Below are positions 3,936 to 10,842 of a DNA stretch of 10,842 bases, one piece after another. The position numbers were made by a program, and so were the translations under genes. A model generated the notes under the pieces. That model did not search any database and was not told the origin of the DNA. It worked only from the letters and a program-made list of their open reading frames with translations. Numbering within the stretch: position 1 is the first letter of the stretch; every line of letters starts with the position of its first letter. The DNA is from Promethearchaeota archaeon (GTDB taxonomy: Archaea > Asgardarchaeota > Lokiarchaeia > Sigyniarchaeales > SOKP01): contig JABXKD010000104.1 of assembly GCA_013375475.1 (NCBI GenBank), positions 1-10,842 on the forward strand, given 5' to 3'.

Positions 3936-6053
3936 ATGCCTAAAACACTAGACGCTTTTACTAAAGAAGGAAAAGGCAGCGTAATTAGGAAGAGGGATCT
4001 AATAAAATCTCCAAATTTAAAAAGAGAATTTCTAGAAATCAATCAACATTTATATGGAAAATTAAAACACACAGAAACCGATACAAGAGCTCGTTCCAAA
4101 GAGATAATAAACTTGATATTGTGTAAATTGGTTGATGAAAAAATAAACTCCTTGCCCGATTCAGTTATGACATTTAGTATTCGAAAAGAGGAAAAAAGTA
4201 ATGAATTACTCGTTCGTCTTAAACAATTCTTTGATGACAATATAAAAGAGAAATATAAATCTATTGTTGATGAAAATGATAACATTAATTTAAACAAAGA
4301 ATTGGTAGTTTTAATTGTTGAGAAATTACAATACATTTCTCTACTGGATTCCTCTAAGGATGTTCTTGCAGATGCTTTTGAGATATTTGTAAGTAGGTTA
4401 TTAAAAGAAGCTGGAGGACAATTTTTCACACCGGCTAGTGTTGTCAAGTTTATGGTAAAATACTTGGATCCTGAGTTAGATACTAAAATTTTAGATCCTG
4501 CTTGTGGACACGGTGGATTTTTATTAGAATGCAAGGACCTTCTGTTATCAAAAATCAAGCAAAAGTACACTAGTCAAAAAAAAATTATTGAAACAAAATA
4601 TGCTAAAACAATCTCTAATCTCTATGGGATTGATAAAGATTCATATTTAGCAAAAATCTGTAAATTATATATTGATATAATAAGCCAAGGTAATTCTAAT
4701 ATTTTTTGCGAGGATTCGTTAGATCCAAATAACTATAGTAATCTAACATTAAATTTTATAAAAAATGACTACTTTGATTATGTGCTTACAAACCCTCCTT
4801 TTGGAGCTAAAATTCCTATTGATAATAAGGAAATTTTAGTAAAATTTGATTTAGCTCATAAATGGGATTACAGAGAAGATAAATGGATTAAGCAAAATAA
4901 ATTAATTAAAAAACAACCGCCACAAATTCTATTCATAGAAAGATGTGTTCAATTACTTAACTATGGCGGGAAATTAGGGATTGTTTTACCAGAAGGTCTT
5001 TTTGGAAATCCTTCAAACAGATATATCTGGGAATATTTACGAAATGTGGGTAAAATTTTAGGGATAATAAGCTTAGATCAGAATGCATTCCAACCTTACA
5101 CATGTAATAAAACTAGCATTCTTTTCTTTCAAAAATTAAAAAATATACCTGATAATTATCAAATCGATTTTGCTATAGTCGAAAATGTAGGTCACGATAA
5201 AGATGGAAAAGTACAGTATAAATTGAATAAAGATGGCACTATAAAATATAACAAACATAATGAACCAATCATAAATAACGACTTAATAAATTTGCATTTA
5301 AAGATTGACGAAAGTACTGAATTTAACTATTTGGAAGAACAAGATGTTTTCAAATTAAACATTAAACAAATTAAAAACAGTATCTTTATACCCTCTTATT
5401 ATACTGGCGTTGAAAAACCTCTCAAATCCTTATTGAAGAACCAGAACTTTATTTTATTATCTATTGCTGATCTAATTGAAAGGGGTATAATTTATACAAA
5501 AAATAAGGAATATCTTCCCAGGGGTGACGAAATTGGTTCTCAAGTTTATGGCTTAGGAGATGTTCCGTTTATACGTACCAGTGAAATTAATAACTGGGAA
5601 ATTAATTTAAATTCACATAAGAAAACATCTGAAGAAATTTATAACCAATTCAAGGAAAAACAAAACTTGGAAGTTGGAGATATTCTTTTGGTTAAAGATG
5701 GTGGTCCAAATTTAATTGGGAAAACTGCGTATATTACTGAATTAGATACACAAATCGTTATTCAGAGTCACATTTATCAGATTAAAACACTCAAAAATAA
5801 AGATTACATTGATCCTTACCTTATACTATACCTACTAAATCTAAAAATTGTTCAAAAACAGATCAGAGCAATAACTTTTGTTCAAGGAACTATTTCTACA
5901 ATTGGAAATAGGATCATGGATGTAAAATTACCTTTTCCCTCTGAATTAGATAAAAGAAAAGAAATTTCAAAACATATTAAAGAAATTATTGATGATAAAA
6001 CAGAGAATAGGAAGAAAATTCTTAACCTCTCTATTAATTCTTTTGATGATTAA
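3936..6053 (+). CDS. N6-adenine DNA methyltransferase (HsdM-like, gamma order) fused to one HsdS-like target recognition domain
   Basis: 705 aa. GQFFTP (motif X), ILDPACGHGGFL (SAM-binding motif I), NPPF (motif IV) and IVLPEG. The C-terminal ~200 aa (VPFIRTSEI, GDILLVKDG..IGKTA, IDPYLILYLLN, KLPFP) resemble a type I S-subunit TRD. Confidence 0.9.
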   Translation: MPKTLDAFTKEGKGSVIRKRDLIKSPNLKREFLEINQHLYGKLKHTETDTRARSKEIINLILCKLVDEKINSLPDSVMTFSIRKEEKSNELLVRLKQFFDDNIKEKYKSIVDENDNINLNKELVVLIVEKLQYISLLDSSKDVLADAFEIFVSRLLKEAGGQFFTPASVVKFMVKYLDPELDTKILDPACGHGGFLLECKDLLLSKIKQKYTSQKKIIETKYAKTISNLYGIDKDSYLAKICKLYIDIISQGNSNIFCEDSLDPNNYSNLTLNFIKNDYFDYVLTNPPFGAKIPIDNKEILVKFDLAHKWDYREDKWIKQNKLIKKQPPQILFIERCVQLLNYGGKLGIVLPEGLFGNPSNRYIWEYLRNVGKILGIISLDQNAFQPYTCNKTSILFFQKLKNIPDNYQIDFAIVENVGHDKDGKVQYKLNKDGTIKYNKHNEPIINNDLINLHLKIDESTEFNYLEEQDVFKLNIKQIKNSIFIPSYYTGVEKPLKSLLKNQNFILLSIADLIERGIIYTKNKEYLPRGDEIGSQVYGLGDVPFIRTSEINNWEINLNSHKKTSEEIYNQFKEKQNLEVGDILLVKDGGPNLIGKTAYITELDTQIVIQSHIYQIKTLKNKDYIDPYLILYLLNLKIVQKQIRAITFVQGTISTIGNRIMDVKLPFPSELDKRKEISKHIKEIIDDKTENRKKILNLSINSFDD

Positions 6054-6515: not shown

Positions 6516-7538
6516 TTAAGATATTCTGGTAGCAAGGTTCTTTAATATTTTTTCTGCTTGATTTGAGAAGCCAGTAATAATATCTTCCACATCCATTATG
6601 GAATCGATCATACCGCAAGTTTGACCGGCAGGAACAGCCCCATTTTCTACATCTCCTTGAGTATACACGATCTCATACCGATAAAGATCTTCTAAAAATG
6701 AATCCATATCTAATGCTGATTCTTGAGCGATTTTCTCTTCTTTTGTCAAAGTTTTTCCGTGTTCAAGGCAATATTTATTCTTCAATAGCCTTATCGGACC
6801 AAAACCACCAGTTGTGATCATAGTATCTTGTGCTGTTGCGGGAGGAATTAAAGCTTTGTAATTAGGGTGAAATTCGCTTTCAGTAGACGCTATAAAACGC
6901 GTTCCCATAGCGACAGCATCTGCGCCCATAGATAACCCTGCTGCTACAGTCTCAGGACTTGCGATACCTCCGCAAGCAACTAACAGTTTATCAGGATATT
7001 TTTGAGCCACTTGTGAAACGAGAACTAATGTAGTAATCCCTTCATAACTCTGATGACCACCCCCTTCAGTCCCAGTCGCACATACTCCGTCACATCCTGC
7101 TGCAAATGATTTGTCTACTAACCATAAAGCCGGAGAGACGTGAAAATGTGTTACATCTGGTGTTTTTTCTTTCAATAATTTGCTGGCAAATTTTGAACCT
7201 CCTGCACTTGTAACGATGTAAACTAATTGTTCGCGAAGTTTAGGATTTTGTTTAATATTTTGGATAATTTTTCTTAGCATTATTTTATGATCGGTCTGAA
7301 GCCGAGCTGTTCGAATATTTACGCCAAAGGACTTGTCTGTGTGTTCAATAACATACTCCAACTGCGCAATCATGTCGTTTACAGAATTTTTTCCCTTTAA
7401 AGTCGCATGACTTAATACGCCAAGCCCACCCGCTTCAGAAACGGCAACTGTTAGCTTAGTGGTGTAAAATGGACCCATTGGAGCGCTTATTATAGGATAT
7501 TTTAGTCCAAATAATTCAGTTAATCTTGTCTTTATCAT
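6516..7538 (-). CDS. Nitronate monooxygenase / FabK-like FMN-dependent oxidoreductase
   Basis: 340 aa. TRLTELFGLKYPIISAPMG, AVSEAGGLG, EGGGH (catalytic His), ACGGIA, AVAMGTRF and AGQTCGMI. Confidence 0.92.
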   Translation of the reverse strand: MIKTRLTELFGLKYPIISAPMGPFYTTKLTVAVSEAGGLGVLSHATLKGKNSVNDMIAQLEYVIEHTDKSFGVNIRTARLQTDHKIMLRKIIQNIKQNPKLREQLVYIVTSAGGSKFASKLLKEKTPDVTHFHVSPALWLVDKSFAAGCDGVCATGTEGGGHQSYEGITTLVLVSQVAQKYPDKLLVACGGIASPETVAAGLSMGADAVAMGTRFIASTESEFHPNYKALIPPATAQDTMITTGGFGPIRLLKNKYCLEHGKTLTKEEKIAQESALDMDSFLEDLYRYEIVYTQGDVENGAVPAGQTCGMIDSIMDVEDIITGFSNQAEKILKNLATRIS

Positions 7539-7825: not shown

Positions 7826-8299
7826 TTAATCGATTTGAGATACAGTGATGTTTGTAACACTTCCATTGGGAGTTAAATTAGAGTATTGCGCCACTGCTTC
7901 CTTCATTGTATATTTTTCAATCATTGCTGTCATAACCATAGCCATTGGACACACCCCTATATTACCTGCAACTGTATGAGCAGATCTCGCCATGAAACAA
8001 TTATTCAAGGAAAAAACGTACGAACCATCAGCTCTCTTCTTAAGAGAAGCGTTTTCAACTAATAAGGAAGTTTTTAATAATTTTATGAACCTTTTACCAA
8101 AATCCTCAATATCTTCTCCTAATATTGGTTCAATACCCAATTTTTCAGTTGTGTCCATAGACTCTTTAATTGCGGGAAATATATAATCAGTATATCCAAT
8201 TTTTCCTAAAGTCTCATCAATACATGATTGAAGAGTAAAAACCCCTACGTGAAATAAACCTGAGATAAATCCAAACTCCTTTGGCATCATTTTATCCAT
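7826..8299 (-). CDS. V4R-like (Bet3/TRAPPC3-related fold) Cys-containing protein
   Basis: 157 aa. Helical N-terminal half followed by YVFSLNNCFMA...H...GVCPMA..AMIE and two terminal strands, the pattern of V4R/MetOD-type domains. Assigned by pattern only. The start may be at 8320. Confidence 0.55.
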   Translation of the reverse strand: MDKMMPKEFGFISGLFHVGVFTLQSCIDETLGKIGYTDYIFPAIKESMDTTEKLGIEPILGEDIEDFGKRFIKLLKTSLLVENASLKKRADGSYVFSLNNCFMARSAHTVAGNIGVCPMAMVMTAMIEKYTMKEAVAQYSNLTPNGSVTNITVSQID

Positions 8300-8348
8300 T
8301 AATTTGCGCTTTAATCCTATTCTTTTTCACCTTATATGAATTTCTTAA

Positions 8349-8666
8349 TTATACATTATTCCAAATACTATTAAAGATTTCTTCAGTTTTTTCTACAATT
8401 AAATTATGTTCTATTACTTTGGTCATAGGAAATAAGATCATTATATACTTGTGTTCCCTTTTTGAGATTGAAATCAATTTATTTTCTGAAGAAATAACAA
8501 TGCTATTTACCTCACCAGCTTCAAATTCATTTGAAAATTTTTTAACTAAATTTATTAACATTCCTCCAATTGAGATCTGACGGGGCGAAGAAAATTTTGG
8601 AGGAACTTCGGAAAAAACAATTTTTCCTATTGTTTCATCAAATACAATAACTCCCTCTGCTTGCAT
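8349..8666 (-). CDS. Stand-alone roadblock/LC7 (MglB/LAMTOR)-like domain protein
   Basis: 105 aa. EGVIVFDE..KIVF, helix, EFEAGEVNSIVISSEN, two strands and a terminal helix fit roadblock topology. It shares 58 of 105 identical residues, ungapped by manual count, with aa 156-260 of the 9362-10162 product. Confidence 0.7.
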   Translation of the reverse strand: MQAEGVIVFDETIGKIVFSEVPPKFSSPRQISIGGMLINLVKKFSNEFEAGEVNSIVISSENKLISISKREHKYIMILFPMTKVIEHNLIVEKTEEIFNSIWNNV

Positions 8667-8778
8667 TGTAGTTTTTAGTTCCTCCAGTTAATTTTAAATT
8701 AATTTAATAATTTTTTATCGAAAAAATACAATTTCCTTTTGTTTTTGTTTGTATATTTTTAATTTTGTTAAAAAAATC

Positions 8779-9336
8779 TTATAAATTACTTTTATATTTT
8801 TCATATAATTCTCTAATTATTTTTTGGAACGCTTCGGTCACCCCTTGATTTGTTTTCGCAGAAGTTCGATAAACTCCAATTATGTTTTTCTCTTTAATGA
8901 AGTTTTGAATAAATTCGTCATCTAATTTATCTTCATTAATTAAATCTACTTTATTTGCAAATATAATGACAGGAATATCACCACAACCCTTTTTAAGGTC
9001 ATTATACCAATATTCAATGTGATTAAGACTTTCTTTACCAAGATCCTTATCTTCGAGGGAATAAACAATAATTGCAGCTTTACTTTCTTCATAAAAATCA
9101 GAACGTAAAAATTCAAACTCCTTTTGACCAGCAATATCCCAAAAATACAATTTACATTCATCTCCATTTACTTTCTCATCATAAAAAGAAAATTGGGCGC
9201 CTATAGTAGATATATAATCTTCCTCAAAAGTGCCTTGAGTATATTTTTTAATTAGAGATGTTTTTCCAACTCCTCCATCTCCAATTACAGTTATTTTAAA
9301 TACAAATTTTAAAGGTCTATCATTCATTAGTTTCAA
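8779..9336 (-). CDS. Rab-like small GTPase (Ras superfamily)
   Basis: G1 GDGGVGKTS, G2 YISTIG, G3 WDIAGQ, G4 NKVD and G5 SAK, plus RabF-like IGAQF and KLYFW. No C-terminal Cys. The start is either TTG at 9336 or ATG at 9327. Confidence 0.96.
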   Translation of the reverse strand: MKLMNDRPLKFVFKITVIGDGGVGKTSLIKKYTQGTFEEDYISTIGAQFSFYDEKVNGDECKLYFWDIAGQKEFEFLRSDFYEESKAAIIVYSLEDKDLGKESLNHIEYWYNDLKKGCGDIPVIIFANKVDLINEDKLDDEFIQNFIKEKNIIGVYRTSAKTNQGVTEAFQKIIRELYEKYKSNL

Positions 9337-9361
9337 TCAAATCCATTCGAATTTATAATTT

Positions 9362-10162
9362 TTATTTTAATATTTCAATCTTTAACATTTTCAAAATGCC
9401 ATCTAAAATTTCTTCTGTTTTTTCCACAATTATATTAAGTTCAATATTTTTTGTTTTGGAAAATAAAACAATTATGTAAATATAATCTCTTTTCGAGACA
9501 CAAATCCACCGATTCTCTGAAGAGATTATTATAGAATTTACATCTCCTCCTTGATATTCAGATGATAATTTTTTAGCAAAATTTATTAACATTCCACTCA
9601 TCGAAATTTGTTTTCTAGATGAATATTCTTCTGGAACTTTAGCAAAAAGAATTTTTTCATCATTTTCATTAAATAGGATTACTCCTTCAGATTGCACTTT
9701 ATAACCAAATTCTTCTAATAAGCCTTCAATAAGCGGTAGTTCCATGAACTGTAACAAATATTTGTTAAAATCTGAGAAAATGGTTATATTTCCATCACGA
9801 ATAGGGAGGTAATCTTGATATCCTTCTAAAAATTTATTTGATATTCTGTTTAGAATGTAATTAATTACTTGGTTTGGTAGATCCTCATAGCATTGTATAC
9901 AAAAAGTAATATTCACGAAGTTATTATAAAATAATTTATGACCACTCATTATTAAGGATTTAACTACCGTGCCTGGAATTAATTTCTCACCAAACTTCTT
10001 AATAGCCGTGAAAAATCCAGACACTATATTTTCATCCAAATCTCCAGTTTTTATACCACAGCTTGTCAAACAGACCCCTGCGTTATCATAAATATAAATT
10101 GATTCAACATAATTTTTTAGTGTTTTTTTTTCCTCTAACAACTCACCCTTATCCGTACTCAT
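9362..10162 (-). CDS. Two-domain protein: N-terminal longin-like domain plus C-terminal roadblock-like domain
   Basis: About aa 17-138 (SIYIYDNAGVCL...DENIVSGFFTAIKKF...VKSL...ILNRISNKFLEGY...DGNITIFSDF) fit the longin pattern seen in Asgard proteins. About aa 145-260 fit roadblock. SD AGGTGA at 10175-10170, 7 nt before the ATG. Confidence 0.75.
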   Translation of the reverse strand: MSTDKGELLEEKKTLKNYVESIYIYDNAGVCLTSCGIKTGDLDENIVSGFFTAIKKFGEKLIPGTVVKSLIMSGHKLFYNNFVNITFCIQCYEDLPNQVINYILNRISNKFLEGYQDYLPIRDGNITIFSDFNKYLLQFMELPLIEGLLEEFGYKVQSEGVILFNENDEKILFAKVPEEYSSRKQISMSGMLINFAKKLSSEYQGGDVNSIIISSENRWICVSKRDYIYIIVLFSKTKNIELNIIVEKTEEILDGILKMLKIEILK

Positions 10163-10231
10163 ATTTTTATCACCTATTTATCTGTAAATTTTACGAGTAG
10201 TCAAATTTTGAACTGTGATTTTGAAAGTTAT

Positions 10232-10450
10232 TTATTCTATTTTTTTATTTAAATCATCAATATGAGATTTTAATTTAGAATTTTCAGCTTGGCATTGGTT
10301 TAATTGTTCTTGTAATTTTTGGTTCTGTATAACAGTTTTATTCGCGTTTAGCAAGGTTTGATATAATTGATTCTTAACCTTCTTTAAATCCTTTTCCAAA
10401 GTCTTTACATATTGATCTTTATCAGATACATATGGCCATTCCTCTATCAT
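10232..10450 (-). CDS. Small coiled-coil protein of unknown function
   Basis: 72 aa. After residue ~10 it has no Pro or Gly, is rich in Q/K/N/E/L and shows heptad-spaced hydrophobics (VKTLEKDLKKVKNQL; LQEQLNQCQAENSKLKSHIDDLNKKI). Confidence 0.75.
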   Translation of the reverse strand: MIEEWPYVSDKDQYVKTLEKDLKKVKNQLYQTLLNANKTVIQNQKLQEQLNQCQAENSKLKSHIDDLNKKIE

Positions 10451-10538: not shown

Positions 10539-10842
10539 TTATTTTTGAGATGCTTTTTCTGCTTTAGCTTGTCGAGTGAAATAGCCAATAGTGCCACAAT
10601 TCTTACACTTTTGAGAATCGTCATCTAGAAAGACCATAGTTTTATTGAAACAAGTAGGACAAATGAAGAGTACTTCTTCTATCTTTTCCTCAGGAATTTC
10701 TACAATCATATCTATATTAGGAACTATTGGTGTTGTAATACAATACATACAAAAACACCTTTTTTTAGTAGCTTCAAGAACCTCATTTAATTTTTCTATA
10801 GGTGCGTCACTCTCAACAAATATTTCAAGTTTATAGTTCTCT
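10539..10842 (-). CDS. 5'-truncated OsmC/Ohr-like protein with a C-terminal Zn ribbon
   Basis: The frame of the 10539-10748 ORF stays open to the window edge and reads ENYKLEIFVESDAPIEKLNEVLEATKKRCFCMYCITTPIVP, which resembles the C-terminal half of OsmC-like proteins. It continues into CPTC-x13-CKNC. Confidence 0.65.
   Translation of the reverse strand, partial: ENYKLEIFVESDAPIEKLNEVLEATKKRCFCMYCITTPIVPNIDMIVEIPEEKIEEVLFICPTCFNKTMVFLDDDSQKCKNCGTIGYFTRQAKAEKASQK

Follow-up and report, generated by a model that had tools for sequence, protein, structure and literature searches.

Here we describe a five-gene locus of a lokiarchaeial genome (Promethearchaeota archaeon, assembly GCA_013375475.1, contig JABXKD010000104.1) in which a Rab-like small GTPase is encoded together with a putative longin-roadblock fusion protein and a partner with a predicted V4R-type fold. 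The window that we analysed is the whole 10,842-bp contig of its assembly, with a GC content of about 27-40%. The five genes lie on its minus strand between positions 7826 and 10450 and encode, in 5' to 3' order, a 72-aa coiled-coil protein (CC72), the 266-aa fusion (FUS266), the GTPase (GTP185), a 105-aa stand-alone roadblock-like protein (RB105) and the V4R-fold protein (V4R157). We read the locus, with moderate confidence, as encoding a longin/roadblock platform that regulates a GTPase and has an obligate V4R partner, which probably binds a ligand or metal. Judged from gene neighbourhoods across Asgard genomes, its conserved core is the adjacent longin-roadblock and V4R-fold pair, not the five-gene set, and the five-gene form is confined to a narrow Loki clade.

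The original prediction had described five co-oriented genes separated by 69, 25, 112 and 49 nt, and the list of open reading frames (ORFs) bears out both orientation and spacers. CC72 (10232-10450) is the first gene of the cluster and is followed by FUS266 (9362-10162), GTP185 (8779-9336), RB105 (8349-8666) and V4R157 (7826-8299 from its annotated ATG, or 7826-8320 with the conserved upstream frame). The order OsmC-CC72-FUS-GTP-RB-V4R, often continued by a nitronate-monooxygenase-family (NMO) gene, was recovered on all five named genome contigs and on eight full metagenome contigs. Seven further metagenome contigs are cut by their ends and are consistent with the five-gene order, three begin at the V4R gene and are uninformative on this point, and one weak match (L111) carries no recognisable genes. 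Across 20 contigs, the gene order and its close spacing persist while V4R identity ranges over 66-96%. Because orthologues stand in the same order across contigs, all five ORFs can be taken as real genes.

Beyond this clade, the pair is found in a more compact form. Among 201 Asgard species genomes, the full-length fusion of the FUS266 type (type I) occurs in eight, in addition to one contig-end fragment. The V4R gene follows the fusion directly in six of the eight (G064, G076, G006, G082, G018 and G048), with no GTPase within about 6 kb on either side, and in the other two only the GTPase and RB105 intervene; G195 is the only one among those genomes with the gene order of the window. Five more directly adjacent type I pairs on metagenome contigs (L105, L107-L110) bring the total to 11, with spacers of -35 to +21 nt, and the three more distant of these contigs (L108-L110) carry FUS-V4R only. 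No other neighbours of the distant pairs are conserved; the flanking genes vary and include HpaB, diaminopimelate dehydrogenase, ABC transporter and aminotransferase genes.

Two paralogous forms of the pair show the same adjacency. In type II, a V4R protein of about 190 aa comes first and a fusion-like protein of about 250 aa second (9/9 loci). All nine type II V4R paralogues (L055:4813-5385, L057:4708-5286, L058-L063 and L069) begin with an N-terminal hydrophobic helix (Kyte-Doolittle 19-residue mean 2.7-3.3), and the type II pair is for this reason probably membrane-anchored. In type III, a fusion-like protein of about 370 aa with an extra roadblock-like repeat (aa 235-357) precedes a V4R protein of about 350 aa, in which the V4R domain is C-terminal (8/8 loci). 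Lack of a conserved neighbourhood had been named as a possible refuter of the original prediction; the five-gene order is conserved in the narrow Loki clade, and the widely conserved unit is only the fusion with its V4R neighbour.

The GTPase joins the pair only in the Loki/Hel clade, where it does so via three arrangements. On two metagenome contigs with 66-68% V4R identity (L105 and L107), the order is FUS-V4R-GTPase, with CC72 before the fusion in L107, and the L107 GTPase fragment is identical to the window GTPase at 62 of 81 positions. An alternative state of the window's own locus occurs in two genomes (G177 and G189), which carry OsmC-CC72-GTPase (69-70% identity) in the absence of FUS, RB and V4R. 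In the first (L118; G177:C18:19000-34000), the GTPase is followed by a gene for a 249-aa coiled-coil/zinc-ribbon protein and by NMO, and in the second (L119; G189:C768) the contig ends at the GTPase. In both, a type III pair (370 aa and 357 aa) and a GH1 glycosidase gene are inserted divergently upstream. CC72 is always found with the GTPase in this clade, and its orthologues precede either the fusion or the GTPase in L083-L087, L089, L092, L094, L096, L097, L099, L101, L103, L104, L107, L118 and L119.

Links between such GTPases and the same fold families are also found elsewhere. The closest paralogous GTPases (60-64% identity), in G156, G150, G192, G171 and G008, each lie beside a longin-domain protein. 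Both Pfam V4R matches elsewhere in the window's genome (G000) adjoin small GTPase genes. At one (L120; G000:C214:19455-22592), a Rab-like GTPase (182 aa) is followed by a thioredoxin-like protein (85 aa) and a V4R/DUF2507 protein (159 aa), and at the other (L121; G000:C257:2205-5321) an Arf-like GTPase fusion (328 aa) lies directly upstream of a V4R-like protein (204 aa). With 70 Ras-family matches in 3.92 Mb, or about one per 56 kb, the chance of such proximity is about 6% per V4R gene, as a rough estimate that ignores clustering. The functional link between the GTPase and its neighbours that had been proposed gains support from the three gene orders that keep them together, and the reading of the locus as a self-contained switch is plausible and now backed by comparative genomics.

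GTP185 is an unambiguous Ras-family, Rab-like GTPase. Its Pfam Ras (PF00071) match scores 138.4 bits against a cut-off of 21.6 (E 2e-40), and the G1 (GDGGVGKT), G3 (DIAGQ, with the Ras-type DxxGQ glutamine), G4 (NKVD) and G5 (SAK) motifs are present. Of the solved structures, Rab23, Rab35 and Rab21 come nearest to it (E 1e-28 to 4e-26) and Ran follows closely; its 60 best solved relatives are Rab and Ran proteins, in a comparison that did not include MglA itself. Eukaryotic Rabs carry a C-terminal cysteine prenylation motif; the GTP185 C-terminus (...EKYKSNL) has no cysteine and hence no such motif. CC72 gave coiled-coil Pfam matches only, all of them sub-threshold.

FUS266 is predicted to consist of two domains, a longin domain at about residues 15-145 (9728-10120, minus strand) and a Roadblock/LC7-like domain at about residues 152-262 (9377-9709, minus strand). 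We collected 30 relatives at 53-100% identity. In a Pfam scan of 19 orthologues at E<=1, Longin was matched in 18 and Robl_LC7 in 12, all below threshold (best Robl_LC7 E 1.4e-4), and Sybindin in one (E 0.13). A FUS266 profile searched against 1.84 billion representatives retrieved 642 relatives at E<=1e-3, mostly over the N-terminal domain. Among the best 149 of these, most had no Pfam family at E<=1e-3; the remainder included 25 with Fuz_longin_1 (best 2.8e-9), nine with Longin, three with Sybindin, three with Clat_adaptor_s, four with Robl_LC7, four with Ras and one with V4R. Single-sequence searches of the PDB with FUS266 returned chance-level rows only. A 44-row profile matched the Roadblock/LC7 chain 9jue_D over the C-terminal domain (E 1.5e-5, profile positions 159-245) and, over the N-terminal domain, MON1 LD1 (E 0.0078, profile residues 7-99) and the VAMP7 longin (E 0.038), with no TRAPP longin chain among the matches at E<=10. 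A profile of the C-terminal domain aligned over 105 columns with nine proteins of this genome that are Pfam-positive for Robl_LC7 (hhalign probability 76.1%, E 2.3e-5). The ESM Atlas leads pointed the same way, connecting FUS266 with Fuz_longin_1 and Robl_LC7 clusters at 0.82 and RB105 with a Robl_LC7 cluster at 0.89. These profiles suggest that the longin domain is nearest to the Mon1 and SNARE longins and not to the sybindin and sedlin families of TRAPP. As a separate observation, 21 distinct stretches of a 2,500-aa library protein (P0098) match the fusion profile, the best of them at FUS266 positions 79-132, and P0098 appears to be a giant protein assembled from repeated longin-like pieces.

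RB105 arose by recent duplication, within the locus, of the part of the fusion gene that encodes the roadblock domain, its 3' half. It is 57% identical to residues 156-256 of FUS266 (E 5e-39), and in a FastTree phylogeny of the C-terminal domains the RB105 clade is monophyletic (support 1.0) and nested within those of the type I fusions (supports 0.80 and 0.92). Recent duplication is indicated by this identity together with the nesting, and it fits a roadblock heterodimer with the domain of the fusion. RB105 orthologues fall into 43 clusters, 41 of which are 99-126 aa long, and two are named Roadblock/LC7/MglB in their source. A GGAGG motif stands 14 nt before the RB105 ATG. We considered RB105 as a pseudogene fragment and rejected this, given the intact ORF in 43 clusters, the length of 99-126 aa in 41 of them and the GGAGG of its own. 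Profile matches extend into the 112-nt spacer between GTPase and RB105, across three to four TAA stops; the idea that this spacer is a decayed remnant of the fusion linker was dropped, as its translation is of low complexity and bears no convincing likeness.

V4R157 could be placed by its predicted structure. V4R157 and 23 orthologues gave no Pfam V4R (PF02830) or TRAPP (PF04051) match at E<=1, the distant, type II and type III V4R partners likewise lack a Pfam V4R match, and searches of PDB sequences returned only chance-level rows with V4R157 as single sequence and nothing meaningful with either of two profiles. The AlphaFold2 (AF2) model reached a mean predicted local distance difference test (pLDDT) score of 70.7 and a predicted template modelling (pTM) score of 0.69, with the N-terminal 60 residues weak. 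In a wide structure search, the V4R protein MJ1460 (2oso) came first (Z 8.3, 100 aa aligned, root-mean-square deviation 3.5), yeast TRAPP 3cue_B scored Z 7.2 (134 aa) and Thor TRAPPC3 7yh2_A Z 6.5 (135 aa), and 12 of the top 16 rows were V4R, H-NOX, TRAPP, BcsD or PoxR/DmpR entries. A second structure search placed the H-NOX domain of soluble guanylate cyclase (8hbe_A, Z 8.8, 136 aa) on top and included 7e2d_G (Z 7.7, 136 residues) and Thor TRAPPC3 7yh3_C (Z 7.6, 131 residues), and the same superfold groups made up 49 of the 50 rows listed. Models without a clear match typically reach Z 7-8, so that the best scores of 8.3-8.8 are middling; the Foldseek E-values were 1e-3 to 3e-2. The model thus suggests membership of the V4R/H-NOX/Bet3 superfold, as a call at the level of the fold only, in which Bet3 is matched no better than V4R or H-NOX. 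Four residues (H17, C101, H108 and C117) are invariant in 37 sequences of the V4R157 family (types I and II), and the N-terminus is conserved as basic.

Taken together, the families that had been guessed from the sequence, GTPase, longin, roadblock and V4R superfold, hold up, all except the GTPase at the level of remote homology; FUS266, RB105 and V4R157 have no support at Pfam thresholds. In our proposal, the locus specifies a regulatory module for a small GTPase, with an older unit of two genes as its base. This unit, the FUS266-V4R157 pair, is conserved across several Asgard lineages, and its two products would most likely work together in a single complex. Within one Loki/Hel clade, a particular Rab-like GTPase and a small coiled-coil protein would have been joined to the pair, and in the sub-clade of the window the GTPase would have come to lie between the members of the pair, with RB105 added as a tandem roadblock duplicate. 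The longin and roadblock domains of FUS266, with RB105 paired on the roadblock domain of the fusion, may form a dimeric GTPase-docking platform. Such a platform could change the nucleotide state of the GTPase as a guanine nucleotide exchange factor (GEF) and/or GTPase-activating protein (GAP), as do MglB, Ragulator, Mon1-Ccz1 and the TRAPP longin pair. V4R157 may bind a metal or a small hydrophobic molecule, and may position the platform at the membrane or gate it there; the invariant His-Cys-His-Cys set, the basic N-terminus and the transmembrane helix of the paralogous pair point to this role. A complex prediction for FUS266 and V4R157, run without controls, gave ipSAE values of 0.02 and 0.03 against a mark of 0.32, which speaks neither for nor against the pairing.

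Besides the middling fold scores of V4R157, several observations weigh against this proposal. FUS266 reaches no Pfam gathering score (Longin 13.1 bits against a cut-off of 26.2, and no Robl_LC7 row in the Pfam scan), and RB105 matches no Pfam family at E<=0.1 and stays below the Roadblock/LC7 (PF03259) gathering score. The longin and roadblock assignments of FUS266 are therefore best regarded as profile-based calls, the AF2 model from a 19-row alignment being unusable (pLDDT 38.9), with low-confidence secondary structure at residues 142-259 that is compatible with the alpha-beta-beta-alpha-beta-beta-beta order of a roadblock fold. The distribution is patchy as well. Among the 61 genomes of the family, the type I cluster occurs in G000 and G195, with a V4R fragment in G203, and the 16 other genomes of the window's genus all lack a full-length type I fusion, their best E-values being about 1e-11 to 1e-15 against 6e-149 in G000. 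There is no GTPase in the fetched flanks of nine distant type I pairs (L038-L043 and L108-L110), of nine type II pairs and of five out of six type III loci; in L066, the sixth, a Ras-family gene lies some 1.2 kb upstream. Since most flanks of the three types lack a GTPase, the pair may work without a dedicated one. V4R domains can be enzymes or sensors unrelated to GTPases, according to a preprint (bioRxiv 10.64898/2026.10.19.760177). Finally, a T7 run directly 3' of the GTPase stop (8770-8776, minus strand), which may be a partial archaeal terminator, could split transcription in the window's genome. Regarding the source of the contig, contamination of G000 is estimated at 6.41% and the window stands alone as a contig of 10.8 kb, and its binning deserves caution; mis-binning would not alter what the locus is.

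Alternatively, the longin-roadblock and V4R proteins might form a GTPase-independent ligand-sensing or regulatory pair, in which the V4R protein would bind a ligand or metal and the fusion would act as an adaptor, with the GTPase of the Loki clade being secondary, loosely coupled or a mere neighbour. We regard this account, taken with its view of the GTPase, as a possible but clearly less probable one. It accommodates the lack of a nearby GTPase in most pairs, the varied metabolic genes that make up the pair's other neighbours and the known use of V4R as a soluble-ligand or enzymatic domain. It sits less well with the three independent arrangements that hold an orthologous GTPase beside a pair, one of them with a different, paralogous pair at the same locus, or with the GTPases that adjoin both other V4R matches of G000. 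Longin and roadblock domains are, moreover, fused to Ras-family GTPases in four of the 149 relatives scanned, which likewise speaks against this account.

The original prediction had named the locus a candidate proto-TRAPP/Ragulator-like module with a Bet3-like partner or sensor. As a true proto-TRAPP, V4R157 would be a divergent Bet3 subunit, the longin domain a forerunner of Bet5/Trs23 and the locus a direct relative of the eukaryotic Rab1 GEF. The TRAPP fold matches do cover nearly the whole model (3cue_B, 7e2d_G and 7yh3_C over 134, 136 and 131 residues), V4R157 adjoins both a longin partner and a Rab-like GTPase, and one Heimdall longin-TRAPPC3 fusion is mentioned in Tran et al. 2024 (PMC10933270). 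Profile comparison argues otherwise: the 37-sequence V4R157 family aligned with 13 Pfam-positive Asgard TRAPP proteins at an hhalign probability of 0.35%, which amounts to no profile kinship, and none of the 23 orthologues carries a Pfam TRAPP or V4R match. The V4R and H-NOX folds score equally well or higher, the longin domain is nearest to MON1 and SNARE longins with Sybindin in only three of the 149 relatives, and a roadblock domain is foreign to the TRAPP core. Pfam TRAPP proteins also occur in other Asgard families than the pair; they are present in 17/17 genomes of family f7, and in 0/15, 0/5, 0/4 and 0/6 genomes of the pair-carrying families f1, f8, f15 and f19, respectively. We therefore regard the proto-TRAPP claim as unsupported and improbable. 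In f7 genomes (e.g., G005:C81:53728-57050), two Pfam-positive TRAPP(Bet3) genes lie about 3 kb apart on one strand; this TRAPPC3-like pair is separate from the V4R157 family and has no sequence relation to it.

That the genes share no function, the arrangement being an island of variable content or a chance assembly of gene families common in Asgard genomes, is very unlikely: the patchy distribution, the alternative contents at the same locus and the richness of the genome in such families (70 Ras and nine Robl_LC7 matches) would allow for it, but order and tight spacing persist over the whole range of V4R identity in 20 contigs, the pair is adjacent in every examined locus of its three paralogous types, and the RB105 duplication is retained as an intact 105-aa ORF, with 43 clusters of orthologues.

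The T7 run had been noted before, is confirmed at 8776-8770, and had been named as a feature that would speak against co-transcription. The run is not conserved, with T>=6 after the GTPase stop in 5/20 relatives; within the window, the run is one of six T>=7 runs on the minus strand. Runs of T>=7 follow the V4R gene in 11 of the 26 relatives with sequence at that position, and T9-T11 follows NMO in all seven relatives in which 60 nt past the stop are present. Shine-Dalgarno-like AGGTGA or GGAGG motifs precede FUS, RB105 and V4R. The genes from CC72 to V4R may plausibly form a single transcription unit in which attenuation behind the GTPase varies. A scan for bacterial-type promoters and terminators gave 19 promoter-like sites against 21.1 expected and no terminators, bacterial models being uninformative for an archaeon.

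Two gene starts may need revision. GTP185 is listed from a TTG at 9336, and the L105 and L107 orthologues start at an ATG aligned with position 9327. Because these orthologues begin there, the true start is probably ATG 9327, which would give a product of 182 instead of 185 aa and an upstream spacer of 34 nt. The V4R157 product is 157 aa long from the annotated ATG at 8299. Its frame is conserved for seven codons (IGLKRKL) upstream of this ATG (8297-8320, minus strand), to an ATA codon at 8320-8318 that is preceded by AGGTGA at a distance of 6 nt. More distant relatives have ATG or GTG at this position, the window and many of its close relatives have ATA, and eight of the ATA-bearing relatives have an in-frame TGA just upstream. 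The pattern suggests initiation at a non-canonical ATA codon or, alternatively, a conserved leader.

The flanks of the cluster belong in part to the syntenic block. Upstream of CC72 lies the 3' part of a gene for an OsmC-like and zinc-ribbon protein (10539-10842, minus strand), cut by the contig end; a full-length 228-aa orthologue matches Pfam OsmC at 3.2e-13. The syntenic downstream gene (6516-7538, minus strand) belongs to the NMO family (Pfam NMO 6.3e-37). The other contig end (285-2935) carries genes for the beta and epsilon subunits of carbon monoxide dehydrogenase/acetyl-CoA synthase (CODH/ACS), a CooT-like gene and a short ferredoxin ORF. An N6-adenine DNA methyltransferase gene (3936-6053) lies between this end and the cluster, and a GNAT gene and an enoyl-CoA hydratase gene are also among the more distant flanking genes.

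By analogy, the module would resemble the GTPase platforms MglB, Ragulator and Mon1-Ccz1 with an added V4R-fold partner, and would not be a true TRAPP. As in MglA-MglB and Rag-Ragulator, the gene of a small GTPase directly neighbours one for a stand-alone roadblock-like protein, and a second roadblock domain, here in FUS266, could form a dimer. Unlike in those systems, the GTPase is Rab-like with the Ras-type DxxGQ and finds its best relatives in Rab23, Rab35 and Rab21, the roadblock domain is fused to a longin domain, and there is a constant V4R-fold partner, which the known systems lack. The Fuz_longin_1 matches in 25/149 relatives and the match to MON1 LD1 are shared ground with Mon1-Ccz1, Fuzzy-Inturned and HPS1-HPS4, and the locus has in common with the tri-longin Rab GEFs a multi-domain longin/roadblock chain beside a Rab-like GTPase. 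In contrast to the three-domain chains of these GEFs, FUS266 has two domains in its 266 aa, and no second tri-longin-domain (TLD) subunit is present; FUS266 is a candidate GEF, and the type III paralogues of about 370 aa with their extra roadblock-like repeat are closer in layout. With the TRAPP core and the Asgard TRAPPC3-like proteins, the locus shares a Bet3/V4R-superfold protein beside a longin-fold protein and a Rab-like GTPase, and the invariant Cys/His set of V4R157 recalls the Zn site of Thor TRAPPC3 and PoxR as presented by Tran et al. 2024 (PMC10933270). It differs from TRAPP in the lack of sequence kinship, in a fold that is equally near V4R and H-NOX, in its roadblock domain and in its subunits, a single V4R-fold gene with no sybindin- or sedlin-type longins. 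The prokaryotic V4R and H-NOX proteins (MJ1460, PoxR, DmpR, MopR and H-NOX) provide the best or tied-best fold matches and share the single-domain size and the conserved Cys/His residues; unlike them, V4R157 has no Pfam V4R match and no fusion to a transcription-factor or kinase output, and is accompanied by a constant longin-roadblock partner.

In Asgard genomes, Ras-family GTPases number in the dozens, and longin, roadblock and V4R/TRAPPC3-like proteins are likewise numerous. Structures of Asgard Rab-like, roadblock and TRAPPC3 proteins are reported in Tran et al. 2024 (PMC10933270), where it is also stated that the GTPase genes of MK-D1 are generally not in operons with RB, longin and TRAPPC3 genes; measured against that statement, the locus of the window is an exception. 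In the literature searched, which did not extend to supplements and subscription papers (e.g., Klinger et al. 2016), we found no description of the longin-roadblock and V4R pair.

A more far-reaching version of our proposal is that the partnership of a longin platform with a Bet3/V4R-fold protein, the architectural signature of TRAPP, predates eukaryotes as an obligate Asgard two-gene complex, which in the Loki lineage, with RB105 and a coiled-coil adaptor, would serve as the dedicated membrane-proximal GEF or GAP of one identifiable Rab-like GTPase, gated by a metal or lipid in the V4R pocket. We consider this version unlikely as it stands; if true, it would provide the first assignable archaeal Rab-regulator pair. 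In a group of organisms where the question is which regulator matches which switch, the locus names candidate partners for one archaeal switch. Together with its relatives, it supplies a well-defined and conserved target for reconstitution, comprising four or five soluble proteins of small size. The pair suggests that a Bet3-like fold working with a longin platform, though not TRAPP itself, may be older than eukaryotes.

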